DNA of 64,000 nucleotides from Escherichia phage SUT_E420, in sequence record OQ990039; one strand, 5' to 3'. Shown in pieces: positions 8,322 to 24,462 of this stretch. Made by a program: the position numbers and the translations under genes. The number at the start of each line of letters is the position of its first letter. Position 1 is the stretch's first letter. Under the pieces are notes generated by a model that had not been told where the DNA came from, did not search any database, and saw only the letters and a list, made by a program, of their open reading frames with translations.

Positions 8322-8352
8322 TGATTTTCCTCTTTCTCACTATTTCAGGAAT

Positions 8353-8381: not shown

Positions 8382-8387
8382 GTAAAA

Positions 8388-8870
8388 TTATAAACTATCA
8401 AGCTCCAATAGTTTAGCATCGCGCCATTCTATAGCATCCTCTAATTCTTTGAATGTTTTAGTATGTTTTACACCTTTTCTAGCAATCTGGACTTGGTAAG
8501 ATCCGCTTGCTTTTTGGTGTATATTCTTAATACCTAACTTATTGTCTTTGTGCGCTCCGACATTCTTTCCATTGTTAAATCTATCAGATGCTAATAAATT
8601 AATTGCTCTATTATCATGACGTATTCTGTTGTCATGGTCTACTTCTTTTGGAATGTATCCATGAGTGATATAGAATGCTAGGATATGTGCATAGTATTTT
8701 TTACCCCTTACTTGCATTACTATATACCCTGAGCATTTTTCTAGAGAACCTGCTTCTTTGCCAGCAAACTTAGTATTAAAGGATTTATCTTCTCTAGGTT
8801 TGTGGGTAAAGATTCCAGTTTCTGGATTATAGTCAAATAACCCAGCTATTTCTTTATATTTTTCTTCCAT
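8388..8870 (-). CDS. HNH homing endonuclease (free-standing, between nrdA and nrdB)
   Basis: 160 aa. HGYIPKEVDHDNRIRHDNRAINL is a classic HNH motif; C-terminal AP2-like DNA-binding segment. Intergenic placement between functionally linked genes. Confidence 0.8.
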   Translation of the reverse strand: MEEKYKEIAGLFDYNPETGIFTHKPREDKSFNTKFAGKEAGSLEKCSGYIVMQVRGKKYYAHILAFYITHGYIPKEVDHDNRIRHDNRAINLLASDRFNNGKNVGAHKDNKLGIKNIHQKASGSYQVQIARKGVKHTKTFKELEDAIEWRDAKLLELDSL

Positions 8871-8902
8871 AATCTAAAATTACAGCTATGATAGGCCTAA
8901 TA

Positions 8903-8920
8903 AAGGGGCTTTCGCCCCTT
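8903..8920. terminator. GC hairpin (AAGGGGC-TTTC-GCCCCTT), bidirectional terminator candidate
   Basis: 7-bp stem with A-rich 5' and T-rich 3' flank; lies after nrdA on the minus strand. Confidence 0.5.
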
Positions 8921-8925
8921 ATTTA

Positions 8926-11259
8926 TTATAATTGACAACCACCGGATGCACATCCAGCAGCAGCTTCTTCACCTGCACCTCCACCATTTGCAGTATTGAA
9001 GTTTGCATAGTAGAAAGTTTTCCACCCATACTTAACAGCAGTCATGAAATCACGAACTACTACTGGGCCAGGAATGATTTCATTCTCAAACTTGGTGTAG
9101 TCATAGTACATATTCGTACTGATAGACTGACTGAAGAATTTCTGCATAGTTGCTACCCACTTGATCCACTCGATACGATCTACATCATAAGCCAGTTTAT
9201 AGCTCATTAACGTTTCCCAATCGGTTGCACCTGGAGCAATTGCAATTACTTTATTTACTGCACTACCCTTGATAGATACAATCTTACGAGGTGGTTCGAT
9301 AGAGTTAGTAACACCTAACAGAACAGAAGAACTTTCTCCCGGCATCTGAGCAGTCAGAACAGAGTTACGCATACCATATTTCAGAATATCTGCACGCAGA
9401 GACTCCCAATCCATTTCTAGACCTACGGATACCAGTTCATCAACAGTTTTCTTGTACGTGTCGATTACCAGAATTCCTTTAGATGGTTTAGTACGATCAA
9501 ACCACTCACATGCACCCTGTTCTTTAGCTAGGCGTACAGAGGCTTTATGCAGGAAGTAAGACAGTTTTTCAGCCTCACGGTGAATCCAGTTACGAGCTTC
9601 AATACCTTCATAAGCCAGACCTTCTGCTGCCATTGCACCTGCTGCGTTCATCAGGCCAATACCAACATTACGACGTTTCTTAGCCGTATATTCCATAGTT
9701 GGGAACGGATAATCCTGAATTTCAATAATTGTATCAACGAATTTCAGAAGGATGTAGCAAGTTTTTTCCCACTCAGCCAGAGATTCCATGCGTCCAAGTA
9801 CAACACCGCCTAAGTTACACAGAGATACTTCACCAATATCCTCCGGCTTCATTTGATCAAGTTGTTCTTTTGTTTTATACAGTTCCGTGATATGATGGAA
9901 CGGGCGTGTAGGCTGAGTAATTTCAACACAAAGGTTTGTCATACGGATCGGATCAAGGAAGTTACCGTGACGATTAGATTCCCCGATGTGATGAGCATAC
10001 ATACGTCCTGTTTCCATTCGGATACGTAGCCAAGTATCTAGGATTTCTTTTGCAGAGACTTTAGGAGCTGCTGGAACTGTTTTTCCTTCGTGGTCGATCT
10101 TTGTAAGAGATGCCACACGTTTCTCCGCTGCCACGTAGATTTCTTCAAATTTAGCCTCGTCATCACTATAAAACGCTTCATGAACTTCTGGAGCATAGAA
10201 GTATGACATTAGCGTAATATCTTCGTTTTTAAGATAACGTTTTAACAAAAGATTGTTAAAGCTCAGAGAATAGTCCATCTTATCGATTTTATTCTCATCT
10301 GTAGCACGTTGTTGCTTAACCTGCATCAATTGAATGATTTCAGGGTCGAAGTACGTATAAGACACTGTGGCAGAACCACCACGAGTTTGCTGAGTATTGG
10401 CCTTTACTGAGCGGTCAATGTGTCGATAATATGGCAGTTTTCCGGAATGCGGGAATGCCCCATTTCGCACCGGATCAGCAATTGATCGGCTTTCAAGATG
10501 ATACCCGATTCCCGCTCTGGCTGCGACCATTTTGAAGACGATGTGCTCGGCGGTGTCGATTGAATCCAACGTGTCAGTGGAATCCACGAGGCAGCAACTA
10601 GCAAATCCACGGTCACTAGAGCGCAGACCAACCAGTGGCGGCGTAGGAATGTTGATTTTGTGGAGTGACATTGCGTTGTAGAGGTCGATTGCATCTAGAA
10701 TTGTCCAGTTAGGTTGAGATAACATCGCCATTGCCATACCCATGTAGGCAAACTGCGGAGTTTCATAGATTTCACCAGTGGCTATGTTACGACGGGAATA
10801 CTTATCAAAGAACTGTTTCAGCCCACCACTAGTAAAAAGACGGTCACGATCATGGTCGATAACCTGATTCAGAGCTTCAAATTGCTCATCGGTAATCCAT
10901 GCACTCATGTCTTCCCATGCACCTACGCTAACCATATGGTCATGGAAGAAGCGCAGAGAAGGTGGTTCGAAGGAATCATAGAGGCGTTTACGCATTTGCG
11001 CAAGACGTAATTCCTTTGCTGGCACATCATATGCTGGATTATCTTTGATAAGACTTTCAGCAGCTTTAATTAATGCATCCATCAGAGTGTCGGAATCTAC
11101 AACCCCTTTAGGCAGAGTTTTTTGAGCAGCCATAGTAATGGCTGACCAACTTACATCAACTGTTTTGCAACCATACTCCGCCCAACCATTGAGTTTTTCA
11201 GGAGCAAAGTCTTCTACAGTACCGTCACGTTTAATTACTTTTTCAATGCGATGGCTCAT
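8926..11259 (-). CDS. nrdA: Ribonucleotide reductase class Ia alpha subunit
   Basis: Start moved to the ATG giving MSHRIEKVIKRDGTVEDF (ATP-cone) with AGGAAAG SD; the track ORF extends 35 codons further upstream. Cys-containing C-terminal tail. Confidence 0.9.
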   Translation of the reverse strand: MSHRIEKVIKRDGTVEDFAPEKLNGWAEYGCKTVDVSWSAITMAAQKTLPKGVVDSDTLMDALIKAAESLIKDNPAYDVPAKELRLAQMRKRLYDSFEPPSLRFFHDHMVSVGAWEDMSAWITDEQFEALNQVIDHDRDRLFTSGGLKQFFDKYSRRNIATGEIYETPQFAYMGMAMAMLSQPNWTILDAIDLYNAMSLHKINIPTPPLVGLRSSDRGFASCCLVDSTDTLDSIDTAEHIVFKMVAARAGIGYHLESRSIADPVRNGAFPHSGKLPYYRHIDRSVKANTQQTRGGSATVSYTYFDPEIIQLMQVKQQRATDENKIDKMDYSLSFNNLLLKRYLKNEDITLMSYFYAPEVHEAFYSDDEAKFEEIYVAAEKRVASLTKIDHEGKTVPAAPKVSAKEILDTWLRIRMETGRMYAHHIGESNRHGNFLDPIRMTNLCVEITQPTRPFHHITELYKTKEQLDQMKPEDIGEVSLCNLGGVVLGRMESLAEWEKTCYILLKFVDTIIEIQDYPFPTMEYTAKKRRNVGIGLMNAAGAMAAEGLAYEGIEARNWIHREAEKLSYFLHKASVRLAKEQGACEWFDRTKPSKGILVIDTYKKTVDELVSVGLEMDWESLRADILKYGMRNSVLTAQMPGESSSVLLGVTNSIEPPRKIVSIKGSAVNKVIAIAPGATDWETLMSYKLAYDVDRIEWIKWVATMQKFFSQSISTNMYYDYTKFENEIIPGPVVVRDFMTAVKYGWKTFYYANFNTANGGGAGEEAAAGCASGGCQL

Positions 11260-11401
11260 TTGGCTTTCCTTTTTATAGTTATCAGGATTTAAGGAATATT
11301 CTACTTTATTATCGGTCATTAGGCAAATAAAATTTTCTGATAGAAAAGGCCCGAGTATTTTCATACCCAGGCCCTGTATATTACCAGTCTAGCTTTTTAG
11401 C

Positions 11402-11623
11402 TTATTCAATTACTTTAGCTCTAGCTACTTCTTTTAATAGAATATCTATGGAGGTGCTCAGCTCGTTATAATTGAATGGTTTATTTGGATTTGAGGTTAC
11501 AATTTTCCACGCTAGGGTTGTCTTAGGACTTTCTTCCCCTTCCTTACGTGTAATCATATTAGCAGCACTCAGTGAAGTACGATGTATTTTAGTTTTACGG
11601 CTCAGATGAACGACGTTTCCCAT
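11402..11623 (-). CDS. Hypothetical small protein
   Basis: Start taken at internal ATG with GGAAGG SD; overlaps the phoH stop. Weak support. Confidence 0.3.
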   Translation of the reverse strand: MGNVVHLSRKTKIHRTSLSAANMITRKEGEESPKTTLAWKIVTSNPNKPFNYNELSTSIDILLKEVARAKVIE

Positions 11624-11624
11624 A

Positions 11625-12386
11625 TTACACCTTCCCCATGTCTTTAAAAATATCATAGAATGCTTTAGACTCAACAGAACGAACGTTATCAATCAATTCG
11701 ATCATTGAGAATGGGGCATTTTCGTATTTTTCATAGACTTCCATAAGGAGTGCTAGACCTGAGTCACCTTTAATGTCTTTCTGAGCTATATCTCCGCAGA
11801 TAATTAAACGGCAGTCTTGTCCTACACGAGTTAGGAGACAAATCATTGCCTCAACGGAAATATTCTGAGCTTCATCGACAATTACATAGGAGTTGTTGAA
11901 AGTTCTGCCACGAGCATGTTCGACAGCCAAAAATTTAATTTTCTGACGTTCGACATATCCTTTATACGCATGATCGCCGATGGCCCATTTCATACCATCA
12001 GCTATTGGCTCCAACCAAGGCTCTAGCTTTTCCGCTAGATCACCAGGAAGCATACCAAGAGACTTACCTAGAGGTTCATTAGGACGTACGAGAATCACTT
12101 GCTCAATATCTGAGTGAATGTCTGCGAGTTCCTGAGCTGCAAGAACGGACGGAATAAAGGTTTTACCAGTACCTGGCTCACCGATACCCACAGTCACTGT
12201 GTTGTTCTTGATCATATTGATATATGATTTTTGCTCGCGGTTTTTACCTACTAGGGATTTAGCAACTGGGTTAGCGTAATCATTAGAAAAATCAGCCTGA
12301 ATTACGTTATTCTCATATTTGTTGCCACGCTTTCTTGAACCATTACGGTTCTCTCTTTTTTGACGTGCTTTTCCCATAAATAACAC
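11625..12386 (-). CDS. phoH: PhoH-like ATPase
   Basis: 253 aa; Walker A GEPGTGKTF and Walker B VIVDEAQN typical of PhoH. Confidence 0.9.
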   Translation of the reverse strand: MLFMGKARQKRENRNGSRKRGNKYENNVIQADFSNDYANPVAKSLVGKNREQKSYINMIKNNTVTVGIGEPGTGKTFIPSVLAAQELADIHSDIEQVILVRPNEPLGKSLGMLPGDLAEKLEPWLEPIADGMKWAIGDHAYKGYVERQKIKFLAVEHARGRTFNNSYVIVDEAQNISVEAMICLLTRVGQDCRLIICGDIAQKDIKGDSGLALLMEVYEKYENAPFSMIELIDNVRSVESKAFYDIFKDMGKV

Positions 12387-12450
12387 TCCTATAGTGTACT
12401 TCGCTAACAGAGGATCAACAAAAAGATCTTGTTTATCAACTTACAAATAT

Positions 12451-12479
12451 ATTATACCAATATATACAGTAAAAAGCAA
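12451..12479 (-). promoter_or_regulatory. T5-type early promoter (minus strand) upstream of phoH
   Basis: Reverse strand: -35 TTGCTT (12474-12479), 17-nt spacer, -10 TATAAT (12451-12456). Confidence 0.5.
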
Positions 12480-12729: not shown

Positions 12730-14604
12730 ATGAATCGCAATGAAGAACTAAAGTATAAAGAAATGCAGGCGTTAATTAGAAACTGCAAAGAGATTATCGA
12801 AGGGTCAGCAGATGAAGAGCTGCTGTTTAATAATGCTAATAAACCCTCAGAACGTTTCCCTACACAAAGGGATATGCTTGCAGGTGAATTGAGTAAGTAT
12901 CTGATTCTAGAAGAAATGCCAATTCAGATTCGAAATGCTCATATGATTGGGGATATTCATTTCCATGATGCTGATTATGCTGCATTAGGCATGACTAACT
13001 GTTGTCTGGTAGCTTTGGAAGATATGTTGAAGAATGGTATGAAGGTTGGTAATGCTGAAATTAGCACTCCAAACTCTATCACTACTGCGGCGGCTATTAC
13101 TGCTCAGATTATCACTCAGGTTAGCTCCCATCAGTATGGTGGTACTTCTGTAGACCGCCTTGATGAAGTATTAGCCCCTTATGTTCGTAAATCATATGAC
13201 AAAAATCATGCGTTTGCAAAACGTTGGACTAAGGATGAAGCCAAAGCATCCGTAATGGCTACGGAGATGACTGAAAAGGAAGTCTATGACGCTTGTCAGG
13301 GTTTAGAATATGAAATCAATACCATGTTCAACTCTAACGGTCAGAGTCCATTTATTACCTTTGGTTTTGGTCTAGGAACTTCTTGGGAAGCACGTCTAGT
13401 ACAGAAAGCAATACTGAAAGTACGCATGGATGGTTTAGGTATCAATAAACGTACAGCTATCTTCCCGAAACTGGTATTTGTACTTCGTGATGGTGTTAAC
13501 ATGAAACCAGGAGATGTTAATTATGACATCAAGAAGTTAGCTATGAAATGTACTGCTGAACGTATGTATCCAGATTATATCAGCTATGACAAAGTTGTAG
13601 AAGTTACTGGAGACTATAAAGTTTCTATGGGCTGTCGTTCATTCCTAGCTGCTACAGAAGATGGTGAAACTGCCGGTCGTAATAACTTAGGTGTTGTTTC
13701 TGTAAACTTGCCTAGAATTGCTATCGAAGCTGAAGGAAATATTGACCTATTTTTTGATTTGCTTGAACTGCGTGTGGATACAGCGTTAAAAGCATTGGAG
13801 TGGAGAGTTGATCGCTTAAAATACATCCAAGCTAAAGCTGCACCCATCCTCTATATGTCAGGAGCCTTTGGGTTACGCTTGGAGCCTGATGAATATGTAT
13901 TCGATCATTTCTATAATCGTGCTTCTGTATCTCTAGGGTATATTGGCTGCCATGAAATGCTACAGTTCATGTTTGGCAAAGATATAGACACAATGTCCGA
14001 GACCTGCATCAAGTTTGTTCAGCGTGTATTGCAGTACATGCGGGATAGAGTCGATCAGAAGAAGGAAGAAACTAAGTTAGGTTATAGCCTGTATGCTACA
14101 CCATCAGAATCCCTATGTGATCGCTTTTGTCGTCTAGACCGTGAATATTTCCCGGAACATGAAGATATTCTGTCCAAAGGATACTACACTAACTCTCACC
14201 ACCTTGATGTGGAACGTAAAGTTGCTCCTAACGTGAAATTTGATTATGAATCTAACTTTACTCCGATTGCTTCTGGTGGGTGTATTTCCTACGTAGAATT
14301 ACCGGATATGAAACGATTCCCAGATGCACTGGAATGGGTTATTAATTATGCTGCTAGTAAGGTTCATTACTTCGGTATTAATACTCCAGTGGATTCTTGC
14401 GGTAAATGTGGATTCTTAGGTGAAACAATAGCATCCGAAGATGGATTTAAGTGCCCTATCTGTGGTAATCATGACCCCGAAACTCTTGAAGTAACTCGTC
14501 GAGTTTGTGGGTATCTTGGAAATCCGGGTGCTCGTCCATTTAACCCCGGCAAACAGCACGAGGTGATGGGCAGAGTGAAACATCAGGATATTCGAGCTAA
14601 ATAA
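12730..14604 (+). CDS. nrdD: Anaerobic ribonucleoside-triphosphate reductase (class III)
   Basis: 624 aa; C-terminal Zn-ribbon CGKCGF...CPICGN and a downstream Gly-containing segment typical of NrdD. Confidence 0.9.
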   Translation: MNRNEELKYKEMQALIRNCKEIIEGSADEELLFNNANKPSERFPTQRDMLAGELSKYLILEEMPIQIRNAHMIGDIHFHDADYAALGMTNCCLVALEDMLKNGMKVGNAEISTPNSITTAAAITAQIITQVSSHQYGGTSVDRLDEVLAPYVRKSYDKNHAFAKRWTKDEAKASVMATEMTEKEVYDACQGLEYEINTMFNSNGQSPFITFGFGLGTSWEARLVQKAILKVRMDGLGINKRTAIFPKLVFVLRDGVNMKPGDVNYDIKKLAMKCTAERMYPDYISYDKVVEVTGDYKVSMGCRSFLAATEDGETAGRNNLGVVSVNLPRIAIEAEGNIDLFFDLLELRVDTALKALEWRVDRLKYIQAKAAPILYMSGAFGLRLEPDEYVFDHFYNRASVSLGYIGCHEMLQFMFGKDIDTMSETCIKFVQRVLQYMRDRVDQKKEETKLGYSLYATPSESLCDRFCRLDREYFPEHEDILSKGYYTNSHHLDVERKVAPNVKFDYESNFTPIASGGCISYVELPDMKRFPDALEWVINYAASKVHYFGINTPVDSCGKCGFLGETIASEDGFKCPICGNHDPETLEVTRRVCGYLGNPGARPFNPGKQHEVMGRVKHQDIRAK

Positions 14605-14646
14605 GCTAATCAGCCGGGTTGCTAGTCGACCTGGCTTTTATTTTAT

Positions 14647-14675
14647 TTGCTTTCAGCCAAAAATTTATATATAAT
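14647..14675 (+). promoter_or_regulatory. T5-type early promoter driving the Sir2-containing operon
   Basis: -35 TTGCTT (14647-14652), 17-nt spacer, -10 TATAAT (14670-14675), then AGATTTATAAATTTGAGAGG. Confidence 0.55.
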
Positions 14676-14703
14676 AGATTTATAAATTTGAGAGGAGAAA
14701 GGT

Positions 14704-15084
14704 ATGGAATTAAAGCCCTATATAGTTGAGTCTACATGTGGTGGTTTCCATCTTGGCGTAGACGATCTTAGAGAAGCTATTTTTGCATCTACTGGAGATT
14801 ATTCCCATCTAGAGGGTATTGGATATTCATCAATTATTGGTGATTGGGTAGAAACAAATCTAGATGTATCACCATATAACTCAGATTGCTTGTTTGACGA
14901 GGATGAGGATGAAATAAAGTATGATATTGAATTTGTTTATAATAGAGTATTAAAAGTATACCAACGTAATCCCGAGGGATACGAAGATATTACTAAAGGT
15001 ATTAAACAGTATCTTAAAGATGTATACTATAATTTTTCTGATGAAGACCTAGAAACAGTTGCAGTGGAGTTTAATAATGGCTAA
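14704..15084 (+). CDS. Hypothetical acidic protein
   Basis: 126-aa ORF, GAGGAGAAAGG SD; first gene of the operon. Confidence 0.45.
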   Translation: MELKPYIVESTCGGFHLGVDDLREAIFASTGDYSHLEGIGYSSIIGDWVETNLDVSPYNSDCLFDEDEDEIKYDIEFVYNRVLKVYQRNPEGYEDITKGIKQYLKDVYYNFSDEDLETVAVEFNNG

Positions 15085-15283
15085 GAATGTAAAACATCTT
15101 AAATATCGCTTAATTTACAATGGACGTATGGAAACAGAAGACCTGGCCCAATTAGCTATTAATTCTAACGAGGTTACAGTGCGTGCGCTGGCAATTGAAA
15201 AGTTGCGTGCCTCTTATGAAAATCGTGTTATGGAACTAGAGGAGAAACTTTATGGCATTCTCGAAGCCGATGCTACCAGATAA
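15077..15283 (+). CDS. Hypothetical small protein
   Basis: Start taken at MAKNVKHLKY overlapping the previous stop. Confidence 0.35.
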   Translation: MAKNVKHLKYRLIYNGRMETEDLAQLAINSNEVTVRALAIEKLRASYENRVMELEEKLYGILEADATR

Positions 15284-15473
15284 GGGTTTAAACGCCGCTT
15301 TGGAAAACGCATTAATGCAGCACTGGGAAACTGGCTATAAGGATGGTGTTGAATCCTGCGCTACTATGCTAGAAGTTATTGCTAATACCTTAATGGAGAA
15401 AGGCAATAAAGAATTAGCTGAGCTATTAGACAGTATTGGGCAAAACTTCAGAGAACAGGTGAAAAATGCGTAG
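15252..15473 (+). CDS. Hypothetical small protein
   Basis: 73-aa ORF overlapping both neighbours. Confidence 0.4.
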   Translation: MAFSKPMLPDKGLNAALENALMQHWETGYKDGVESCATMLEVIANTLMEKGNKELAELLDSIGQNFREQVKNA

Positions 15474-16281
15474 ATTAATTGTTATTAGCGGTGCAGGTTT
15501 GAGTGTTGAAAGTGGTGTACGAGCTTTTCGTACTGATACTGCTAGTGGTAAAGCATTGTGGGATGATTATGATCTAGAAGAAGTATGTAATATTCATGCC
15601 TTTCGTGGTAATTTTTATCATAAAACCCATATGTTTTACAACAAGCGTCGTGAAGAGCTAAAAACTGTTGAACCCAATCTTGCGCATTTGCGTATCGGTG
15701 AATGGTATAAACAATATCCAGGTCAAGTAGTAAACTTGACTACCAACGTTGATGACCTTATTGAGCGTTCTGGCGTTCCACATAATGACATTCTACACAT
15801 TCATGGATATTTAAAAGAGGTTGTTGTAGCTGATAGCTACAATAGTAGCAATAAACGGATTATTGATGTAGGATACAATTCTATTGATCCAGATGATTAT
15901 AAATGGGTTAAACCTAATGTAATCTTCTTTGGAGAGCATGCTCCAGCATATGCGGAGATGTACAATGTTTTTGATGGTATTACCAGTCAAGATATGATCA
16001 TTGTGGTTGGTTGCTCTAACCAAGTAATTAACTTCTACTGGGAATTATTTCCTGTTCTTAATTTGACTGCTGCCAAGCTAATGGTTGTTAACTACTATGA
16101 TAGTGCCCTAGCGGCGGAACCGAGCTATCAAGGTATGACTCGTAGTGAGATGTACCAGCTGGAAGAACGCGGTATCCCTTACTGGGGTAAAGGTGCGGTA
16201 GATGCTTTCAGTGATCCTGATTTTATTGCTCGTGTAGAAGCTCATTTAGGGGGTAGACCTTATGTGTCAGGAAATAAGTAA
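15466..16281 (+). CDS. Sir2-family (sirtuin-like) NAD-dependent protein
   Basis: 271 aa. N-terminal ISGAGLSVESGVRAFR matches the sirtuin NAD-binding motif GAG(I/L)SxESG(I/V)xxFR; Rossmann-like remainder. Confidence 0.7.
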   Translation: MRRLIVISGAGLSVESGVRAFRTDTASGKALWDDYDLEEVCNIHAFRGNFYHKTHMFYNKRREELKTVEPNLAHLRIGEWYKQYPGQVVNLTTNVDDLIERSGVPHNDILHIHGYLKEVVVADSYNSSNKRIIDVGYNSIDPDDYKWVKPNVIFFGEHAPAYAEMYNVFDGITSQDMIIVVGCSNQVINFYWELFPVLNLTAAKLMVVNYYDSALAAEPSYQGMTRSEMYQLEERGIPYWGKGAVDAFSDPDFIARVEAHLGGRPYVSGNK

Positions 16282-16774
16282 TACTCCAATTATTTTTCTA
16301 GACATTGATGGGGTGCTCAATTCGAGCATCTCCCACTATCATGCACCTGATGATGAAAAGATTTTCTTTGGAAGTGATTGGGTTTTCAAACCGCTTCTCA
16401 AGGCTTTTCAGGACTTTATTCGTCCTTCTCCAATAATGATTGTTGGAGTATCATCTTGGTTCTCTGTCAGAAATGAGATGGAGAACGTTCAGATTATGAC
16501 CGGATTAGGCCTTATCGATCGTTTTCTTGGTACAACGGATTTTACTGGTGGTGGATTATCTAGGGGTAATTCTGTTCTTCGCTTCGTTGAAAAGCATAAG
16601 CTCAAACATTGGTGTGTGCTTGATGATGCGGGTGCTATGATGTATCAGTATCCAACGGTTATAGTCAACGGTAGGACTGGTATAAATCTTCAAGATTTAA
16701 AAGCTGTTAGCTATATGCTAGAATTTAGCCCAGATCTTGAAATGTGTAAATCCTTACAACAATTTAAGGTGTAA
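16262..16774 (+). CDS. HAD-superfamily phosphatase-like protein
   Basis: 170 aa; N-terminal IIFLDIDGVLNS is HAD motif I (DxDG); later VLDD-like acidic motif. Start overlaps the Sir2 gene end. Confidence 0.5.
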   Translation: MCQEISNTPIIFLDIDGVLNSSISHYHAPDDEKIFFGSDWVFKPLLKAFQDFIRPSPIMIVGVSSWFSVRNEMENVQIMTGLGLIDRFLGTTDFTGGGLSRGNSVLRFVEKHKLKHWCVLDDAGAMMYQYPTVIVNGRTGINLQDLKAVSYMLEFSPDLEMCKSLQQFKV

Positions 16775-16776
16775 AT

Positions 16777-17205
16777 ATGTTCAATAATGTATTCTCTAAA
16801 GAAGCTAACCCAATTTTGGTTAACTTTTGGCGTACTCTTCCAGCTAGCCTGTATAATGAGGCTATTAACTCTTTGAAAATATGGTGTGAGAATAACGAAA
16901 TCTACTTTGCTTTTAAAGATGATATTGATGAAGCCCCCTGTATTGGTTTAATTGTTCAGGTAGAGGAGGGTCTTGAAGAGATTGTCGGCTGGAAAGAGTT
17001 AGATGAAATGGGCTTAGTTTTTGCGTTAAACTATAAGCTGTTTATGCCTGCTAAGCATCGCCTCGTTGTTAACTATAAAACTAGTGAATCTCCTGGTTTT
17101 CAAGTTAATGAACGTTACGGTTGGTCTTACTCACCAGAAGAAGTGAATGATGGTATCCAAAAACTTCGCCGTTTCGGGTATATGATCCCAGGTTTAACTG
17201 CTTAA
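16777..17205 (+). CDS. Hypothetical protein, paralog A of a tandem pair
   Basis: 142 aa; shares PCIG...MGL(V/I)xALN...(I/V)PGL blocks with the adjacent downstream ORF. Confidence 0.5.
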   Translation: MFNNVFSKEANPILVNFWRTLPASLYNEAINSLKIWCENNEIYFAFKDDIDEAPCIGLIVQVEEGLEEIVGWKELDEMGLVFALNYKLFMPAKHRLVVNYKTSESPGFQVNERYGWSYSPEEVNDGIQKLRRFGYMIPGLTA

Positions 17206-17214
17206 GGAGGCAGA

Positions 17215-17604
17215 ATGGAACAAGTATATTGGCGTCAGATTGACCCTAGTTTGGTGAAACGTGCGGAGAAGCTGCTACAACGTTGGTTGGGGGTAAGACA
17301 AGCCTCCTTCACTTTTCCTGAGCAGCAAATAGATGATCCATGCATTGGCGTTTTCCTGTCTGGATACGCCAGGGAATGGGAACTGGATTGGAATGAGTTG
17401 TCTGCTATGGGTTTAATTGTTGCCCTAAATTTCTCTTTGTTCCATCCACGTGGTTTTGCCATATGTCGTGTGCCGGATGATGGTTGTTCGCCCCATCTTT
17501 TACAGGTGGAAAATGATATTTGGGAGTACACTCCAGATATTCTCAAAGAAGCTAAAGAACAATTAAACCGTGTTGGGATATATGTTCCGGGATTAAATGA
17601 CTAA
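17215..17604 (+). CDS. Hypothetical protein, paralog B of a tandem pair
   Basis: 129 aa; homologous to the upstream ORF over its conserved blocks; GGAGG SD. Confidence 0.5.
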   Translation: MEQVYWRQIDPSLVKRAEKLLQRWLGVRQASFTFPEQQIDDPCIGVFLSGYAREWELDWNELSAMGLIVALNFSLFHPRGFAICRVPDDGCSPHLLQVENDIWEYTPDILKEAKEQLNRVGIYVPGLND

Positions 17605-17630
17605 TGATTTTTATTAGCTGAACTCTGATT

Positions 17631-17656
17631 ACCGAGTCATTTTGGCTCGGTTTTAT
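17631..17656 (+). terminator. Intrinsic terminator candidate after the Sir2 operon
   Basis: 8-bp stem ACCGAGTC / GGCTCGGT followed by TTTT. Confidence 0.45.
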
Positions 17657-17698
17657 CCGTACTCAAGACCAATGATAGCACCATCCGGAAAATTTTAC

Positions 17699-17727
17699 TT
17701 GCAGGATGCTCAAAATCTTGATATAAT
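17699..17727 (+). promoter_or_regulatory. T5-type early promoter reading into the ORF-free region
   Basis: -35 TTGCAG (17699-17704), 17-nt spacer, -10 TATAAT (17722-17727). Confidence 0.5.
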
Positions 17728-18226
17728 ATTTATATTGAATTGAGAGATATTAGTAAAAATTGATTTTGCTAATTTTTCTTGTTTACAATCCGCGATACGG
17801 AACAGTTAGGCTGCCCAATTAAGGGTTGTTTTAACTGTTACGTGTTAGTTTTTAAACAAATAGTTAATAGAATACTTAGCGATCTGCGTCCCGTAGGAAC
17901 CCTGGTAAGGCCTCGAAGCAACCTAGATAGAGGTGGTTGTGAAGTGAGACGGGAGGAGTGAAAAACTCCGAGACGTGATTCTGTAAGTTATATTGCATCT
18001 AGTATGAGCTAGTACATGAAGCATTAGGTGAGCAAATCTGGCTTAGCGGCCATCCTCAAGGATTTGTGCGGTATAGCAAAGCAGCAGCGCAGCGTGAAAG
18101 TGGAAGTTGCCACCCCACTTCAGTATTTGCGATTAATTTGTTGAGAAATTGACAGTAACAGTTGTTCTATTCTTTCTGAATAGTCCTAAAGAAAACTTAT
18201 TTCATTTCCAACACAGGAGTATTGTT

Positions 18227-20641
18227 GTGTTCTCAATCCTACAAGGTCATGCAGGATTTCATCGCGATTTAGCCACAGGCAATTGGCGAGAAGTTAAAGC
18301 AGAAGACTATCTTTTTGCTAAAAGATTTTCCTCAAAGCATCCTGAAGGTAAACCAGCTTCAATGCCCTTCAAGTTTGATGTAATTGATGAAGTTGATCCT
18401 CAAACCCTAGTAGAAATGCTTCCTCTTATGAGACGTTTAACGTCTGACCCTCATATCGTTGCGGTACGAGGTCGATGTCTTACACCTAAAAATAATGTGC
18501 GACGTAAGAAGGGCAACTTTAATGTATCTAACCCAAGTCATATAATTGCAATGGACGTGGATGGTATTGTAGATACAGGTGGTTGCAACAAGTTTGATCT
18601 TGTTGGCATGGCTCGACATATTATTAGAATGTTAAATAGTATTAGTGAGGATATGTTTCCTCTTGATGCAGGGTTTATCGCTCATGCATCGTCTTCGGCT
18701 GGGCTNNNNNNNNNNNNNNNNNNNNNNNNNNNNNNNNNNNNNNNNNNNNNNNNNNNNNNNNNNNNNNNNNNNNNNNNNNNNNNNNNNNNNNNNNNNNNNN
18801 NNNNNATGTTAAATAGTATTAGTGAGGATATGTTTCCTCTTGATGCAGGGTTTATCGCTCATGCATCGTCTTCGGCTGGGCTAAAACCAGGTATCCGAAT
18901 GCACTTAATACTAGAATCTAATGTTAAAGTAACTCAGGGTCAAATCAAATTCTTATTTACATCTATCAACGAAAGTAGTAGACAAAAGTATGGCTTTGAT
19001 ATTGCCGACTTAGCTTATTACTCTTCCGTACAGCTCCACTATTTTGCAGATCCGTTATTTACCGATGGTATAGTAGATCCGTTTAAAGCGGAGGGTGCTT
19101 CACGTCTGGTATTTGTTAAGGGTTCTAAAGTAAATTTACCCAATAATCTGGTTGACTATGAAACAACTAGAGGTGAGTTTAAGGAGGAGTTTTACTCTTT
19201 ACTCGATCAAATTAAAGGTAAAAAAGCTGCCTCTGATAAAGTAGAGGAAACTATCAGCGAACTAGAAGAAGCTGAGGATGGAGTGTATCTACGTATCATA
19301 CCTAAACTCTATCACAGAGCCTTAGAGGATGGTGTTGATTTTGCATGGCTAGAAAAAGAAATCCGTCCAGCCTTATCAGAATATATTGCAACTAAAGATA
19401 ACAGTCGCAATATTCAAGATTACTTTAATAACGGTCGTAAACAGGCTCTGAAAGCATTTGTTAATAATTCTAAACGTGATATACCTGATGTTTTAAAGGG
19501 TATTCCACTTAAAAAGCTAGAAACTAATTCTCTAGAAACTGATAACTTCTTGAAATTAAATACTGTACCACCAGAAGGTTATATGACTTTTGTAAAAGCA
19601 AGTCTAGGTACAGGTAAAACTACAGCGGTTGTGCGTTGGTTAGATTCAGGAGTTATTAAAGGTAATTTCTTAGCAATTACCAATACTAGAGCACTGGTAT
19701 CTTCAAATGCCAAGAAATTTAGTGCAGGACAATATGATAAGTCTGTAGATATGCTTAATTTTAAGCGGGGTGCTATTGACCGTATGTCCACAACTATTCA
19801 CTCTTTGCATAAATTCAAGAGTTTTATTGGTCAAATTGATGCAATCTTTATCGATGAATGTGATGCAGTAATGAATGACCTATTATTCGCCCCGGTTGTT
19901 AAACAACGTCGCGAGTGTATTCAGGTTCTTCGGGATATTCTTGCAACTGCAAAAATCATTATATTATCTGATGGGGATATTAGTGCAGAAACAATTGAAG
20001 CATATGGTTCTTTGATTGAGTTTGATAAACCAGTAGCATTTTATAACCATCACCGTAAAATGCTATCAAAAGCTCATGCTTATGAGTTCCCGGATGAATC
20101 CAGTATTTGGGTTGCACTTCAGACTTCTCTAGAGATGGGTGAGAAATCTATCCTAGTATCTGACTGTGGGCCGGATGAACTGAATGAGAAGGGTATGGCA
20201 TTGCGTCGTAATACGGGTGCGTTAGTTAAGGAAATCCACTCAAANNNNNNNNNNNNNNNNNNNNNNNNNNNNNNNNNNNNNNNNNNNNNNNNNNNNNNNN
20301 NNNNNNNNNNNNNNNNNNNNNNNNNNNNNNNNNNNNNNNNNNNNGATATTAAGAAGTGTTCAAATGTCACTATCAAACCATTCATAGAAGCTCTGAAAGG
20401 TAAGAAGAAAGATTTCTTCCTTAAAACAGGTCAGAGTGCTAACCCAAAATATGCCAGAATGTATCTTGGTATGATGGGTATTGGTAAGGATATGAACACT
20501 GAAAATATTGTAGACTGGTACAGAACCTATTGTAAAATCGAGTGTATGCCAATCCCCTATAAGTTTATGACTGATGAGGAGAAACATATGCATGATGAAG
20601 CAATGGCAGAGCTAGGTGCTAGAAATGACAGTGAAGAATAA
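18227..20641 (+). CDS. Putative replication initiator / P-loop helicase-like ATPase, possible N-terminal primase-polymerase-like domain (interrupted by two assembly gaps)
   Basis: Start proposed at GTG 18227 with AGGAG SD. Walker A SLGTGKTT and Walker B IFIDECD. N-terminal IIAMDVDG and GIRMHLIL resemble AEP motifs (tentative). Contains gaps 18706-18805 and 20245-20344. Confidence 0.55.
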   Translation: MFSILQGHAGFHRDLATGNWREVKAEDYLFAKRFSSKHPEGKPASMPFKFDVIDEVDPQTLVEMLPLMRRLTSDPHIVAVRGRCLTPKNNVRRKKGNFNVSNPSHIIAMDVDGIVDTGGCNKFDLVGMARHIIRMLNSISEDMFPLDAGFIAHASSSAGXXXXXXXXXXXXXXXXXXXXXXXXXXXXXXXXXXMLNSISEDMFPLDAGFIAHASSSAGLKPGIRMHLILESNVKVTQGQIKFLFTSINESSRQKYGFDIADLAYYSSVQLHYFADPLFTDGIVDPFKAEGASRLVFVKGSKVNLPNNLVDYETTRGEFKEEFYSLLDQIKGKKAASDKVEETISELEEAEDGVYLRIIPKLYHRALEDGVDFAWLEKEIRPALSEYIATKDNSRNIQDYFNNGRKQALKAFVNNSKRDIPDVLKGIPLKKLETNSLETDNFLKLNTVPPEGYMTFVKASLGTGKTTAVVRWLDSGVIKGNFLAITNTRALVSSNAKKFSAGQYDKSVDMLNFKRGAIDRMSTTIHSLHKFKSFIGQIDAIFIDECDAVMNDLLFAPVVKQRRECIQVLRDILATAKIIILSDGDISAETIEAYGSLIEFDKPVAFYNHHRKMLSKAHAYEFPDESSIWVALQTSLEMGEKSILVSDCGPDELNEKGMALRRNTGALVKEIHSXXXXXXXXXXXXXXXXXXXXXXXXXXXXXXXXXXDIKKCSNVTIKPFIEALKGKKKDFFLKTGQSANPKYARMYLGMMGIGKDMNTENIVDWYRTYCKIECMPIPYKFMTDEEKHMHDEAMAELGARNDSEE
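18706..18805. other. Assembly gap (100 N) flanked by identical 77-bp copies
   Basis: The 77 bp before the N-run (18629-18705) are repeated exactly after it (18806-18882). Confidence 0.95.
20245..20344. other. Assembly gap (100 N) without flanking duplication
   Basis: No repeat of the flanking sequence across the gap; true gap content and length unknown. Confidence 0.95.
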
Positions 20642-20858
20642 AAAATGGGAAACAAGGAAGTTTCCAGTAAAAGAACGTAAAGTTCCTGTTTACGACACTT
20701 CGGAAAAGCTATGTAGGGTGGTACCGCATAGATTAGCTGGCATCCCTAACATATCCGAGTGGTTACTTAAACAACGGAAAACAAACGTGTCTCTTCGTAT
20801 CGGCTTTGAATTAGATAAAGTCTATGCTGAACTTGCTTCTTTACTCAAGGAATCGTAA
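20625..20858 (+). CDS. Hypothetical small basic protein
   Basis: ATG at 20625 within an ORF overlapping the end of the upstream gene. Weak. Confidence 0.3.
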   Translation: MTVKNKKWETRKFPVKERKVPVYDTSEKLCRVVPHRLAGIPNISEWLLKQRKTNVSLRIGFELDKVYAELASLLKES

Positions 20859-20866
20859 AAATTTAT

Positions 20867-20895
20867 TTGCATAGTGCAAAAAATTTCTGTATAAT
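20867..20895 (+). promoter_or_regulatory. T5 PN25-like early promoter
   Basis: AAAAATTTATTTGCAT...TTTCTGTATAATAGATTCATAAATTTGAGAGAGGAGTTTAAAT is nearly identical to the T5 PN25 promoter as I recall it. -35 TTGCAT (20867-20872), 17-nt spacer, -10 TATAAT (20890-20895). Confidence 0.7.
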
Positions 20896-20926
20896 AGATT
20901 CATAAATTTGAGAGAGGAGTTTAAAT

Positions 20927-21631
20927 ATGGCTGGTTCTCGTAGAAAGAAACATATCCATGAAATCCCGGATGAAGTCTTTAAAAAGGTTATAGAGCATCT
21001 GGAGAACGGTGGTACCAAGAAAGCAGCATGTGAAATGCTCGGCGTATCATCCAATCCAACTATGGAAAGGATGATTGAAGAATGGCAAGACCGCCAGATT
21101 CAAGTGGCTGAAATGAAGAAAAAGAAACGTGGCACACTCATTGAAGGCATTGAGTTAGCTAACGTTATTGAACAGTATTTGTCTGGTGATTCTTTTGAAG
21201 AAATTGCCGATCGTAATTACCGCTCTGTAGCAATGGTTAAATCTGTTCTGGAACGATATGGTGCTCTGCTTCGTTTGAATGATATTGTAGATCCATTGAA
21301 TCCTCCAATTATTCCTGATGATGCTGTAGCAGAAGAATTTGCAGTTGGTGAGCTTGTTTGGGTTCCTGGATACCAGTGTATCGGTGAAATCAAAAAAGCA
21401 ATGGATAACCCTGTTGGTTGTTACCGTGTATGGCTTCTATCAGAAGGCAAACAACAGAACGTTCATTATATGAATTACGAGCTGGCTTCTGTTAAACATC
21501 TGGAAAAGTTAGGGGTAGACGTAAAATCTCTAGGATATAAGTGGACTCGTGAAGAAATTATTACGTTGATTAACGAAGCTGTTAAGGCTGCCCTGAAACT
21601 TGATAAAGAAAAAGGAAAACGCCGTGAGTAA
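20927..21631 (+). CDS. Helix-turn-helix DNA-binding protein (possible regulator)
   Basis: 234 aa; N-terminal GGTKKAACEMLGVSSNPTMERMIEEW is a typical HTH; first gene after the PN25-like promoter. Confidence 0.5.
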   Translation: MAGSRRKKHIHEIPDEVFKKVIEHLENGGTKKAACEMLGVSSNPTMERMIEEWQDRQIQVAEMKKKKRGTLIEGIELANVIEQYLSGDSFEEIADRNYRSVAMVKSVLERYGALLRLNDIVDPLNPPIIPDDAVAEEFAVGELVWVPGYQCIGEIKKAMDNPVGCYRVWLLSEGKQQNVHYMNYELASVKHLEKLGVDVKSLGYKWTREEIITLINEAVKAALKLDKEKGKRRE

Positions 21632-21875
21632 GCTAACAGATTTGCTTAAAGATGGGGAAGTAAAAACTCTATATCGTAGAAGCTGGGATAATGACAATAA
21701 TGGCTTAGTGTTACTAACTTTAGACGCTGACTCAGATGTAGTTACCCAACATACCTGGGTAGCTGGTAATTATCCCTATAGTGAGGTTGTTACGTTAACA
21801 GTATGCGAAGCTATTGCTGACGATTGGGAGATTGCCAGCATTGATGATATGCTTGCTGTTGGCCTGGTGGAGTAA
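21624..21875 (+). CDS. Hypothetical small protein
   Basis: Proposed GTG start with AAGGAAAA SD overlapping the upstream stop. Confidence 0.35.
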   Translation: MSKLTDLLKDGEVKTLYRRSWDNDNNGLVLLTLDADSDVVTQHTWVAGNYPYSEVVTLTVCEAIADDWEIASIDDMLAVGLVE

Positions 21876-21892
21876 CTACAGAAAAATTTCAG

Positions 21893-21921
21893 TTGCTTAA
21901 TCCTATAATTCTTGATATAAT
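21893..21921 (+). promoter_or_regulatory. T5-type early promoter
   Basis: -35 TTGCTT (21893-21898), 17-nt spacer, -10 TATAAT (21916-21921). Confidence 0.5.
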
Positions 21922-21978
21922 ATTCTCATAGTTTGAAAGAACTATTCTGTTTAATTCTTAATTAAGGAAATATAAAAT

Positions 21979-22389
21979 ATGACTACTCCAACTCAGTGGA
22001 CTGATGAACTGTTCGAAAAAATGTCTTCCGAATACGTTGCTCGTATGGAGCAATTCCCAGAGGATGAACGTCCGGGTGTTAGCATGGAAATTGTTAGCGA
22101 AATTGCTCAGGAAAATGGTGTAACTCCGAACGGTTTTCGTATGAAGTTGACCAAAGCAGGTGTATATATCAAGAAAGCTGCTGGCTCTGCTTCTAAATCT
22201 AGTGCATCTACTGGAGAAAAAGCTTCTGGTGGTTCTCGCACTTCCAAAGCCCAAGCTCATGCCGATCTTCGTTCAGCATTCTCTGATGCTGGCCTAGCAC
22301 CAGATTTTCTGGATGATGCAATTATCGACAAACTGACCGGTAAAGCGGCTGCTCATCTGGCAGAAGCAATCCGAGCTATCACTAAGTAA
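21979..22389 (+). CDS. Hypothetical protein (Ser/Ala-rich linker)
   Basis: 136-aa ORF with host-optimal codons. Confidence 0.45.
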   Translation: MTTPTQWTDELFEKMSSEYVARMEQFPEDERPGVSMEIVSEIAQENGVTPNGFRMKLTKAGVYIKKAAGSASKSSASTGEKASGGSRTSKAQAHADLRSAFSDAGLAPDFLDDAIIDKLTGKAAAHLAEAIRAITK

Positions 22390-22425
22390 TTTTTAGATAA
22401 ATCCACCAACAAAAGGAACACAGTT

Positions 22426-22722
22426 ATGACCAAAGCTGAAATTATCGCACAATGTGAAAAATTTGGTGAGTTTTATCTTCATTACGAGAAACTTCGTCAG
22501 AAAGGAACCACGTACCTTCAGGGTACGATGGAATTTGATCCAGCCCAAGATAAATATCTGGCTGAGCGTATTAAACGTGAACGTATTCGTAAAGCGAAAG
22601 ATGATGAGATCCTTGTCTTCTCTCGTACTAATGATAGCTTCCGTTTTATTCCTGTCGAGAAAGTCCGTCGTGTGACTAGCCTCCAATCAGAGTTAGATCG
22701 TGCTTCTCCAGTAGGCCGATAA
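22426..22722 (+). CDS. Hypothetical protein
   Basis: 98-aa ORF with AAAGGAACA SD; followed by a terminator hairpin. Confidence 0.45.
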   Translation: MTKAEIIAQCEKFGEFYLHYEKLRQKGTTYLQGTMEFDPAQDKYLAERIKRERIRKAKDDEILVFSRTNDSFRFIPVEKVRRVTSLQSELDRASPVGR

Positions 22723-22732
22723 GAAACCAATT

Positions 22733-22753
22733 AGCCCCTATATGGGGCTTTTT
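22733..22753 (+). terminator. Intrinsic terminator (AGCCCC-TATAT-GGGGCT + T-run)
   Basis: 6-bp GC stem and TTTTT tract. Confidence 0.5.
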
Positions 22754-22772
22754 GTGTATTTGGGATATGTAA

Positions 22773-23081
22773 ATGAGCGAACAGGTAAATCAAAACTATG
22801 AAGGACACGTTGATGACCAGTCCATCATACTTTGGGAGAAGGAGGGGGAACAAGTAAGATTAACAGTATCTGAATTTCGTGGGAATCTATACATGGGTAT
22901 TCGTTACTGGCTTCTTGATATTAATGATGAATGGTTTCCAACGAAATCTGGCTTCTCTTTTCCTTACACCCTAGAAACAACATCACAGCTTTTCTATGCG
23001 TTTACACAGATTCTTAGCGAATCTGAGGTTTTACATGAAGTACAGAAACGAGCTGAAGAACTCAAAGCCAAGAATGCCTAG
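22773..23081 (+). CDS. PC4-like ssDNA-binding protein
   Basis: 102 aa; LTVSEFRGNLYMGIRYWLLDINDEWFPTKSGFSFPY matches the PC4/YdbC ssDNA-binding domain pattern. Confidence 0.55.
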   Translation: MSEQVNQNYEGHVDDQSIILWEKEGEQVRLTVSEFRGNLYMGIRYWLLDINDEWFPTKSGFSFPYTLETTSQLFYAFTQILSESEVLHEVQKRAEELKAKNA

Positions 23082-23108
23082 TTCTTGGCTTTTTCTTTAT
23101 AAATGTAT

Positions 23109-23137
23109 TTGCTTTCAACTCAGTTTTGTTATATAAT
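23109..23137 (+). promoter_or_regulatory. T5-type early promoter
   Basis: -35 TTGCTT (23109-23114), 17-nt spacer, -10 TATAAT (23132-23137). Confidence 0.5.
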
Positions 23138-23167
23138 ATTTATATAAATTAATGAGAGGGTTGCAAA

Positions 23168-23440
23168 GTGAAAAAGATAAGTATAAGTACACTTAAACCT
23201 TTCCCGTACATCGGACAGCCTCTTATACTTATGTGGGAGGGGAAGATTAATGGAGAAAAGTATACTAAAACTAGAAGTGGGTATAAGCTGATTTCACTTC
23301 ATTACGAAAAAGAAGTATTAGTAGCTGAAATATACTCTCCGTTGTCAGATAGGCTAGTAAAAACTACATATTTGCATCTTTGCAAAAATTATACATGGCA
23401 CGGATCCACTAGACAACCCACATACTATGAGGCAGAATAA
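23168..23440 (+). CDS. Hypothetical small protein
   Basis: 90-aa ORF with GTG start after GAGGG SD, immediately upstream of ligA. Confidence 0.4.
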   Translation: MKKISISTLKPFPYIGQPLILMWEGKINGEKYTKTRSGYKLISLHYEKEVLVAEIYSPLSDRLVKTTYLHLCKNYTWHGSTRQPTYYEAE

Positions 23441-24412: not shown

Positions 24413-24462
24413 TACATAACCCTTTGCTACCCATCTACCATATCGGAATTATAAAGTGGTTA

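Follow-up and report, generated by a model that had tools for sequence, protein, structure and literature searches.

We analyzed a stretch of 64,000 nucleotides from Escherichia phage SUT_E420 (sequence record OQ990039), hereafter the window, in which seven closely packed genes (g1 to g7) between positions 14647 and 17656 include one for a sirtuin of the Sir2 family (g4) and one for a small phosphatase of the HAD superfamily (g5). Over 3.1 kb, the region matches Escherichia phages SUT_E1520 and SUT_E520 at 100% identity and many Tequintavirus genomes at 94–97%. The window is Tequintavirus DNA, and the locus is that of T5.100–T5.107, a single early transcription unit. In phage T5, the counterpart is preceded by nrdD (T5.099) and followed by the gene for the replication-origin-binding protein (T5.108), with a promoter and terminators annotated at matching positions.

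The seven open reading frames (ORFs) are preceded by a T5-type sigma-70 early promoter (TTGCTT-17 nt-TATAAT; 14647–14675, plus strand), which is nearly invariant across T5, Lindwurm and DT57C and coincides with the annotated promoter in T5. They are followed by an intrinsic terminator (17631–17656, plus strand; hairpin at 17631–17651 and a U-run), which is annotated in both T5 and Lindwurm. The window contains 12 copies of the pattern TTGCT-N17-19-TATAAT as compared to 0.46 expected, and none of 100 shuffled sequences reached 12; a generic scan overlooked the operon promoter because TTGCTT agrees with TTGACA at only three of six positions. The closing hairpin has a 9-bp stem with a folding free energy (dG) of -13.2 kcal/mol and a z-score of -4.3, and equal folding was obtained in none of 200 shuffles. 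Genes g1 to g5 overlap at their successive junctions by 8, 32, 8 and 20 nt, followed by gaps of 2 nt (g5/g6) and 9 nt (g6/g7), and a purine-rich ribosome-binding site is present at every one of the seven gene starts. The ORFs, the excess of the promoter pattern and the hairpin statistics bear out the promoter, seven ORFs and terminator that a sequence-only reading had placed at 14647–17656, and the arrangement is far above chance.

The sirtuin and the HAD phosphatase

Gene g4 (T5.102; 15466–16281, plus strand) codes for a class-III-like sirtuin of 271 amino acids that belongs to a phage clade without zinc cysteines. It matches the Pfam SIR2 family PF02146 over profile positions 1–178 of 180 (4e-24; 86 bits, as compared to a gathering cut-off of 24), with matches to no other Pfam family and, among solved structures, to sirtuins only. 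The best of these is E. coli CobB (1s5p, 4e-17), with Sir2Af and SIRT5 also among the nearest solved relatives. In an alignment of the window protein with 120 homologs, the motifs GAGxSxxSG..FR, TNVDD, HG, K-P-x-V-x-FFGE and GxS, as well as N209, are invariant or nearly so among the 121 sequences. The residues concerned, aligned to the CobB motifs, are G9-A10-G11, S13, S16, G17, F21, R22, N94, D96, H113 and G114, together with F57, Y58, R61, R62, F155, E157, S184 and N209. The class-III YxxR pair that binds the acyl carboxylate (F57-Y58-N-x-R61-R62; FYNxRR) is retained in full: none of the 121 sequences lacks Y58 or R61. With all NAD-binding (nicotinamide adenine dinucleotide) and catalytic residues in place, g4 is predicted to be catalytically intact. 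The initial Sir2-like call is thereby upheld by the Pfam match, and the catalytic residues whose absence would have spoken against it are present throughout the alignment.

The zinc-binding module is lost in the whole clade: the CobB cysteines 116, 135 and 137 (1s5p numbering) are replaced by V/Y/I, Y/F and W, respectively, in all 121 sequences, and g4 contains two cysteines in total, none of them in a CxxC motif. The protein scores far below the NCBIfam equivalog cut-offs for CobB (NF040867, 88.7 vs 320 bits; NF001753, 99 vs 243 bits), and no family among the PADLOC models for defence-type Sir2 proteins (ThsA, DSR1/2, SIR2-HerA etc.) was matched at E <= 0.01. The phage clade thus shares with CobB and SIRT5, its best solved-structure matches, the NAD-binding motifs, the catalytic His, the FGE loop and the YxxR pair, but differs from them by the missing Cys4 set (0 of 121), the scores under the cut-offs, a clade-specific C-terminal extension and a different genomic context. 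The clade is acidic throughout, with isoelectric points (pI) of 4.6 to 6.05 and net charges of -6 to -20; a CobB fragment is also acidic, and net charge is thus a weak discriminator. About 1,000 phage records match the clade, and its carriers number in the hundreds among sequenced phages of the T5-like, rV5-like, phi92-like and jumbo groups. In the databases, the g4 gene is annotated as an NAD-dependent deacetylase.

Gene g5 (T5.105; 16262–16774, plus strand; 170 amino acids), the start of which overlaps the end of the sirtuin gene by 20 nt, matches the HAD_SAK_2 family (PF18143) over profile positions 1–138 of 139 (9e-20; 71.9 bits vs a cut-off of 27.5). The initial assignment to the HAD superfamily had been based on motif I (FLDIDGVL), which is part of FLDIDGVLN in g5, and it is confirmed by the profile match, by the conservation of four motifs and by the fold. 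The motifs DxDGVLN, VGVSSW, GGGxxRG and DD are kept in 28 homologs with identities down to 27%, and D14-x-D16-G-V-L-N (motif I), S64/S65 (motif II), R101 in GGGxxRG (motif III) and D121-D122 (motif IV) are invariant or nearly so, with R101 assigned to motif III from its position. No solved relatives of the HAD family or of g1 were found by sequence, and a Rossmannoid HAD fold was confirmed for g5, with MDP-1 and the protein phosphatases Scp1 and UBLCP1 as the closest folds and with CTDNEP1 and Fcp1 also among the top matches. MDP-1 acts on sugar phosphates. From its sequence, g5 is predicted to be a small HAD phosphatase of the capless type, the active site of which is intact.

In T5, the product of T5.105 is labelled as “Sir2 (NAD-dependent deacetylase)” (L005, 5589–6095; compared loci and contigs carry L numbers), and so are many orthologs. 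The family phrog_18062 (PHROG 18062), which is named Sir2, corresponds to the C-terminus of the HAD protein and is matched by residues 79–170 of g5 at 6e-58. The Sir2 label of T5.105 appears to be a propagated annotation error, and it may have come from chimeric remnants in which Sir2 residues 169–216 are joined to HAD residues 130–170, such as the “sir2” gene of DT57C (L002, 3980–4252).

Conservation of the pair and its neighbourhoods in other phages

We compared the operon gene by gene across six loci, five intact ones and that of DT57C. Apart from the sirtuin and HAD genes, no gene is shared by all five intact loci. In DT57C, the pair has been lost: it is reduced to a chimeric remnant of 273 bp, while g2, g6 and g7 are kept. 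Lindwurm has all seven genes. T5 has no g3 and carries additional small ORFs, T5.103 and T5.104, between the sirtuin and HAD genes. In the Epseptimavirus phage atrejo, the first gene is a different one, and the sirtuin is only 52.5% identical as compared to 91% for the HAD protein, such that the pairing survives allele exchange. In two divergent Demerecviridae-like contigs (L016 and L018), the order is inverted, with the HAD gene (40–42% identity) followed by a g1 homolog and the sirtuin gene (61–63%); neither nrdD, g2, g3 nor DUF7415 genes such as g6 and g7 are found nearby, and a PhoH gene lies directly upstream in the one contig that extends in that direction. The adjacent g4 and g5 genes are the conserved functional core of the operon, and the operon as a whole combines separate functions in a mosaic and does not form one machine of seven genes.

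The coupling of a Sir2 protein to a phosphatase, as originally suggested, is thus seen at all five intact loci. The accompanying suggestion that all of the neighbours are candidate partners does not hold, since the DUF7415 genes travel separately, g2 and g3 come and go, and g1 is detected in only about 130 of roughly 440 T5-like records. A single seven-gene module is ruled out by the divergent Sir2–HAD loci that have no DUF7415 gene, g2 or g3, and by DT57C, which keeps g2, g6 and g7 without the pair. We also considered whether g1 might be an obligatory third partner, lost together with the pair in DT57C. This idea was dropped, as g1 is detected in only 130 records and other first genes occur: the first gene of the DT57C type also appears to be present in phages with an intact sirtuin and HAD gene, and that of atrejo is yet another.

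The pair has been described in silico. Iyer, Burroughs, Anantharaman and Aravind (2022; PMC9503650, section 3.7.3) defined a neighbourhood of a sirtuin and a Swiss-army-knife (SAK)-like HAD protein, exemplified by Escherichia phage SP15, and predicted that the sirtuin strips 2'-phosphates from RNA in the manner of KptA, while the HAD protein handles terminal phosphates or the cyclic-phosphate by-product of ADP-ribose (ADPR). The same prediction is given in PMC7824862. SP15 is a Tequintavirus, and the window has the features of this type-3 neighbourhood: a phage-clade sirtuin beside a SAK-like HAD gene, with a 20-nt overlap, and no Macro domain in the operon. It is the same locus, with no difference in kind, and the function proposed for it there is a prediction; what is added here are the other five genes, the inverted HAD–g1–Sir2 order, the loss in DT57C and the junction with NARP1-like genes described below. 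The initial statement that the function was unassigned is accordingly correct with regard to experiments, but not with regard to prediction. Both the pair and its predicted function were already in print as in silico results, and annotations of T5 have included the locus for a long time, so that the discovery value of the locus is modest.

Orthologs of the two proteins have other neighbours elsewhere. In the Vequintavirinae (rV5-like phages), sirtuins that are 56–62% identical to g4 are encoded beside RNA_lig_T4_1, cREC_REC and an AAA_33 kinase, in operons that also contain a calcineurin-like phosphoesterase and a MazG-like protein; this setting is the type-2 RNA ligase context of Iyer et al. 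(2022). In the Yersinia jumbo phage fHe-Yen9-04, a sirtuin of 44% identity lies between a 2H phosphoesterase and a Nudix–cREC fusion, and the 2H protein passes the Pfam model of the anti-CBASS protein Acb1 (63.3 bits vs a cut-off of 27). A 148-residue protein annotated as an RNA ligase in this phage (L021, 2342–2788), two genes upstream of the sirtuin gene, is in fact the 2H phosphoesterase. Genes for NAD salvage are found near the sirtuin gene, at a distance of about 5 kb in BIS47 (a Prs-like gene) and of 2.5 kb in fHe-Yen9-04 (NAMPT). HAD homologs are also encoded close to RNA ligase genes: in Aeh1 the distance to rnlA is about 1 kb, and in contig L011 an RNA ligase gene lies 3 kb away.

In the Serratia phages ChuuTotoro and Kashira, in ABPH49 and in one JGI metagenomic contig, the gene immediately before a Prs-like and a NAPRTase-like gene, in that order, codes for a HAD_SAK_2 protein (L009, 6001–9217; L010, 6001–9222; L012, 6001–9569). 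The HAD protein is 37–40% identical to g5, and its gene overlaps the start of the Prs-like (Adps-like) gene. An adjacent pair of Adps (Prs-like) and Namat (NAMPT-like) genes is the mark of NARP1, and judging from the sequences, the arrangement looks like a NARP1 NAD+-reconstitution pair preceded by a HAD gene. It is confined to one lineage, represented by three isolates and the one contig. NARP1 accessory enzymes have been described in two preprints, namely the Macro-domain ADPR-1''-phosphate phosphatase Adpp, which acts against aRES, and the glycosidase RyDEP; neither preprint mentions a HAD protein or a sirtuin. In NARP1-AP (Adps, Namat and the Macro-domain protein Adpp; Osterman et al., 2026, preprint), a phosphatase is likewise attached to an NAD-centred phage module, and the HAD protein of the ChuuTotoro type may be the HAD counterpart of that phosphatase. 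The differences are that Adpp is a Macro-domain protein, whereas g5 is a HAD protein with a predicted activity, and that no Adps or Namat homolog accompanies the pair in T5-like phages. With regard to the latter, NrdG, RNA ligase, cREC, polynucleotide kinase (PNK)-type kinase, Adps and Namat were all absent from the window and from positions 1–50 kb of T5 (the search did not extend to the last ~16 kb of T5), and the Adps and Namat proteins of ChuuTotoro gave no tblastn match in these stretches at E <= 0.1.

Candidate functions of the pair

The explanation that we tentatively prefer, and consider possible rather than probable, is that g4 and g5 serve in the NAD-dependent removal of RNA-end phosphates with the help of host enzymes. 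The pair would clear phosphates left on RNA, most likely tRNA, by the cleavage of host ribonucleases; T5 has 25 tRNA genes of its own. In the active site of the sirtuin, the 2'-phosphate oxygen would attack C1'' of NAD+ with release of nicotinamide, and the 2''-OH, activated by the catalytic His, would then attack the phosphorus to yield RNA with a 2'-OH and ADP-ribose 1'',2''-cyclic phosphate. Such a reaction would parallel both that of Tpt1/KptA and ordinary sirtuin deacylation. The HAD protein would thereafter remove the remaining terminal 2'- or 3'-phosphomonoester from the RNA, or dephosphorylate the ADP-ribose-phosphate by-product. Sealing would be left to host enzymes such as RtcB, since no RNA ligase, cREC or polynucleotide kinase is found in the T5-like sequences searched. 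In a CRISPRi-ART knockdown screen of T5, T5.100–T5.106 were scored as “Not Fit”, that is, dispensable on the laboratory host, which fits a conditional accessory role in repair or counter-defence; no other genetic or biochemical work on T5.100–T5.107 or DUF7415 was found in the literature.

The likeness to Tpt1/KptA consists in the proposed NAD+-dependent removal of RNA 2'-phosphates through an ADP-ribosylated intermediate to ADP-ribose 1'',2''-cyclic phosphate, and in the genes for RNA ligase, kinase and cyclic-phosphate enzymes that accompany the sirtuin in related phages. It would be a functional analogy only, with a predicted activity: Tpt1 belongs to the ADP-ribosyltransferase (ART) superfamily, whereas g4 is a Rossmann-fold sirtuin without sequence homology to it, and g4 is acidic, whereas Tpt1 enzymes are basic. 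The HAD protein can be compared to the phosphatase domain of T4 Pnkp, a DxDxT HAD 3'-phosphatase that takes part with Rnl1 in tRNA repair, with which it shares the superfamily, the DxD nucleophile and the proposed role in end healing.

Several observations weigh against RNA-end repair. We know of no sirtuin that acts on a nucleic-acid phosphate, and no experimental study of this phage sirtuin clade was found in the literature. The pathway would be incomplete by itself in T5-like phages, as the sequences searched contain none of the ligase, kinase and cREC genes that accompany the sirtuin in rV5-like phages. The uniform acidity of the Sir2 clade, which is unusual for an RNA-binding enzyme, is a weak argument in the same direction. 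The retained YxxR pair, FGE loop and catalytic His suit a desuccinylase equally well, the HAD fold is closest to MDP-1 and to the protein phosphatases Scp1 and UBLCP1, and T4 Pnkp is not among the top 60 fold matches of g5. Finally, the position of the HAD gene before NARP1-like genes and the Acb1-matching 2H neighbour can be read as signs of signal or metabolite processing.

The latter observations bear on an alternative that we regard as doubtful, in which the pair acts on NAD and ADPR metabolites with no mending of RNA. The HAD protein would dephosphorylate ADPR-1''-phosphate, the opened product of ADPR cyclic phosphate or 2'-phospho-ADPR, the sirtuin would make or use that species, and together they would blunt NAD-based immunity or clear toxic ADPR-phosphates. 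Such a role would account for the HAD_SAK_2 gene directly before the NARP1-like pair in ChuuTotoro, ABPH49, Kashira and the metagenomic contig, and it has precedents in the two experimentally studied NARP1-associated enzymes that turn ADPR derivatives into ADPR. The NAD-salvage genes near the sirtuin genes of BIS47 and fHe-Yen9-04, the match of the jumbo-phage 2H neighbour to the Acb1 model and the similarity of the capless HAD protein to MDP-1 point in the same direction. An ADPR-phosphate phosphatase would also be compatible with a Tpt1-like sirtuin reaction, the by-product of which is ADPR cyclic phosphate. However, the HAD–NARP1 junction occurs in one lineage only and goes without mention in the NARP1-accessory preprints, as do sirtuins. 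In T5-like phages, dephosphorylation of ADPR-phosphates could not restore NAD+, given the absence of Adps and Namat homologs from the stretches searched, and in the strongest contexts, the neighbours of the sirtuin orthologs include an RNA ligase and a polynucleotide-type kinase.

A role in erasing protein modifications during early takeover also appears unlikely. Here, the sirtuin would be a CobB-like lysine deacylase (deacetylase or desuccinylase) or a protein ADP-ribosyltransferase, and the HAD protein would be a protein phosphatase, in agreement with CobB, Sir2Af and SIRT5 as the nearest solved relatives of g4, with Scp1, UBLCP1, CTDNEP1 and Fcp1 among the top folds of g5 and with the database annotation of g4. 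The succinyl-lysine-binding Tyr/Arg pair, the catalytic His and the peptide-binding FGE loop are invariant, and the acidic surfaces suit protein over RNA partners. Yet all four zinc cysteines of CobB are lost across the clade, and the zinc module, a part of the peptide cleft, is known to be retained in characterized protein deacylase sirtuins. The score of g4 is far under the CobB equivalog cut-off (88.7 vs 320 bits), no neighbourhood was found to include an acetyltransferase, a kinase–substrate pair or a Macro domain, and the conserved neighbours in other phages are enzymes for RNA or nucleotide processing. By far the least probable alternative is an unregulated or triggered NADase that drains host NAD+ in order to halt metabolism or exclude superinfecting phages. 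A Sir2 domain consumes NAD+ by definition, and loss of the zinc module is a feature shared with defence-type Sir2 NADases, but g4 matches none of the PADLOC defence models, clusters with the class-III deacylases and keeps the substrate-pocket residues. A loss of NAD+ also seems disadvantageous to a phage that has an NAD-dependent DNA ligase of its own, and NAD+ salvage genes lie near the sirtuin gene in other phages.

The suggestion of an NAD/ADP-ribose-directed module in host conflict thus stands as the shared thread of all the contexts found, but not for the seven genes jointly: g4 is probably an NAD-consuming enzyme that is functionally coupled to the g5 phosphatase in phage–host conflict. 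A more specific combination, which we consider speculative and rather improbable, is that the zinc-less sirtuin is a convergent, Tpt1-like RNA 2'-phosphotransferase and the HAD_SAK_2 protein a new type of ADP-ribose-phosphate phosphatase. The latter activity would explain both the pairing with the sirtuin in T5-like phages and the placement before NARP1-like genes in ChuuTotoro-like phages. If so, g4 would be the first sirtuin with a nucleic-acid phosphate as substrate, the HAD protein would be a non-homologous analogue of the Macro-domain proteins Adpp and Poa1p, and its ChuuTotoro-like homologs would provide a second route around the RES-type defence by NAD+ phosphorolysis. Removal of RNA 2'-phosphates by the sirtuin would extend sirtuin chemistry beyond proteins and NAD hydrolysis and add a new repair arm to the tRNA-centred arms race that T5 joins through its own tRNA genes, while action of the HAD protein on ADP-ribose phosphates would add a third enzyme class to the phage toolkit for NAD+ reconstitution.

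Accessory genes, transcription signals and flanking features

The last two genes of the operon, g6 (T5.106; 16777–17205, plus strand; 142 amino acids) and g7 (T5.107; 17215–17604, plus strand; 129 amino acids), had been taken to be two paralogous genes of unknown function, and both indeed code for DUF7415 proteins, with 31% identity to each other (E-value 6e-19). They score 125.1 bits (g6, 1.2e-36) and 109.6 bits (g7) against PF24187, which has a cut-off of 27, with two matched stretches in each. An exhaustive profile search retrieved 161 representatives of the family, which share a conserved core module of about 55 amino acids. The module occurs in stand-alone small proteins and in fusions to dATP/dGTP pyrophosphohydrolase (two representatives) and to thymidylate kinase. 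It also makes up a small ORF between nrdD and nrdG in Jiaodavirus (L007, 3980–4213) and the ORF immediately after rnlA in Aeh1 (L006, 8224–8526). The links of DUF7415 elsewhere are to nrdD/nrdG, a MazG-like pyrophosphatase and thymidylate kinase, and this association with deoxynucleotide metabolism agrees with the position of g6 and g7 downstream of nrdD. The AlphaFold2 (AF2) model has a predicted local distance difference test (pLDDT) score of 97, and a search with it gave no structural relatives outside the family, including in the PDB. The proteins are very acidic and have no invariant residues of catalytic appearance; g6 and g7 are probably a separate, adaptor-like and non-catalytic pair tied to deoxynucleotide metabolism.

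The first three genes are variable small accessory genes, the only matches of which are to PHROG families of unknown function. Gene g1 (T5.100; 14704–15084, plus strand) codes for an acidic protein of 126 amino acids (pI 4.07; phrog_11748 at 1.8e-69) with no match in Pfam, NCBIfam or the PDB. Its homolog sits between the HAD and sirtuin genes in the divergent contigs L016 and L018, and it was found in only 130 phage records as compared to roughly 440 T5-like phages with both the HAD and sirtuin genes; it is a recurrent but non-obligatory neighbour of the pair. Gene g2 (T5.101; 15077–15283, plus strand) codes for 68 amino acids from an ATG start, or for 74 amino acids from an alternative TTG start at 15059. 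It matches phrog_5236 at 1.3e-45 and is present in T5, DT57C and atrejo, but not in L016 or L018. Gene g3 (15252–15473, plus strand; 73 amino acids; phrog_5827 at 7e-31) varies between phages, with no homolog detected in T5 or DT57C and one of 34% identity in atrejo. The small ORFs T5.103 and T5.104 (phrog_5116; L005, 5244–5602; L023, 4330–4670) are present in T5 and many of its relatives; in the window, the sirtuin and HAD genes overlap directly.

Upstream of the operon, nrdD, which codes for the anaerobic ribonucleotide reductase, is located at 12730–14604. It ends at an intrinsic terminator (14612–14646, plus strand; annotated in T5) that forms the 5' boundary of the transcription unit, with a 10-bp stem containing six G-C pairs, a T-run, a dG of -15.4 kcal/mol and a z-score of -4.45. 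For the NrdG activase, no ORF with a CX3CX2C motif was found in the window, and there was no tblastn match in the window or in T5 1–50 kb; the phage presumably depends on the NrdG of its host. T5.056 is annotated with a glycine-radical domain.

The window contains 14 runs of exactly 100 N (18706–18805, 20245–20344, 29732–29831, 33978–34077, 34636–34735, 35373–35472, 36005–36104, 36875–36974, 37871–37970, 38443–38542, 45263–45362, 60991–61090, 61494–61593 and 62115–62214), most of which are flanked on both sides by copies of the same stretch of about 77 nt. They look like scaffold joins of overlapping contigs. The duplications give rise to artificial peptide repeats, for example in the ORF of the origin-binding protein (18149–20641). 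None of the runs of N touches the operon.

Just past the operon terminator, an additional promoter (TTGCAG-17-TATAAT) can be read from the sequence at 17699–17727. The twelve T5-type promoters are located on the minus strand over positions 2023–12479 and on the plus strand over positions 14647–32794. The strand switch between 12479 and 14647 therefore marks a divergent point of early transcription near the junction of PhoH and nrdD. A gene for a PhoH-like ATPase is located near the Sir2/HAD region in three lineages: in contig L018, it is divergent and directly adjoining (1339–2115, minus strand), in Tequintavirus it is separated from the operon by nrdD (L001, 26–778, minus strand), and in the jumbo phage fHe-Yen9-04 it lies two genes downstream of the sirtuin gene (L021, 5546–7000, plus strand).

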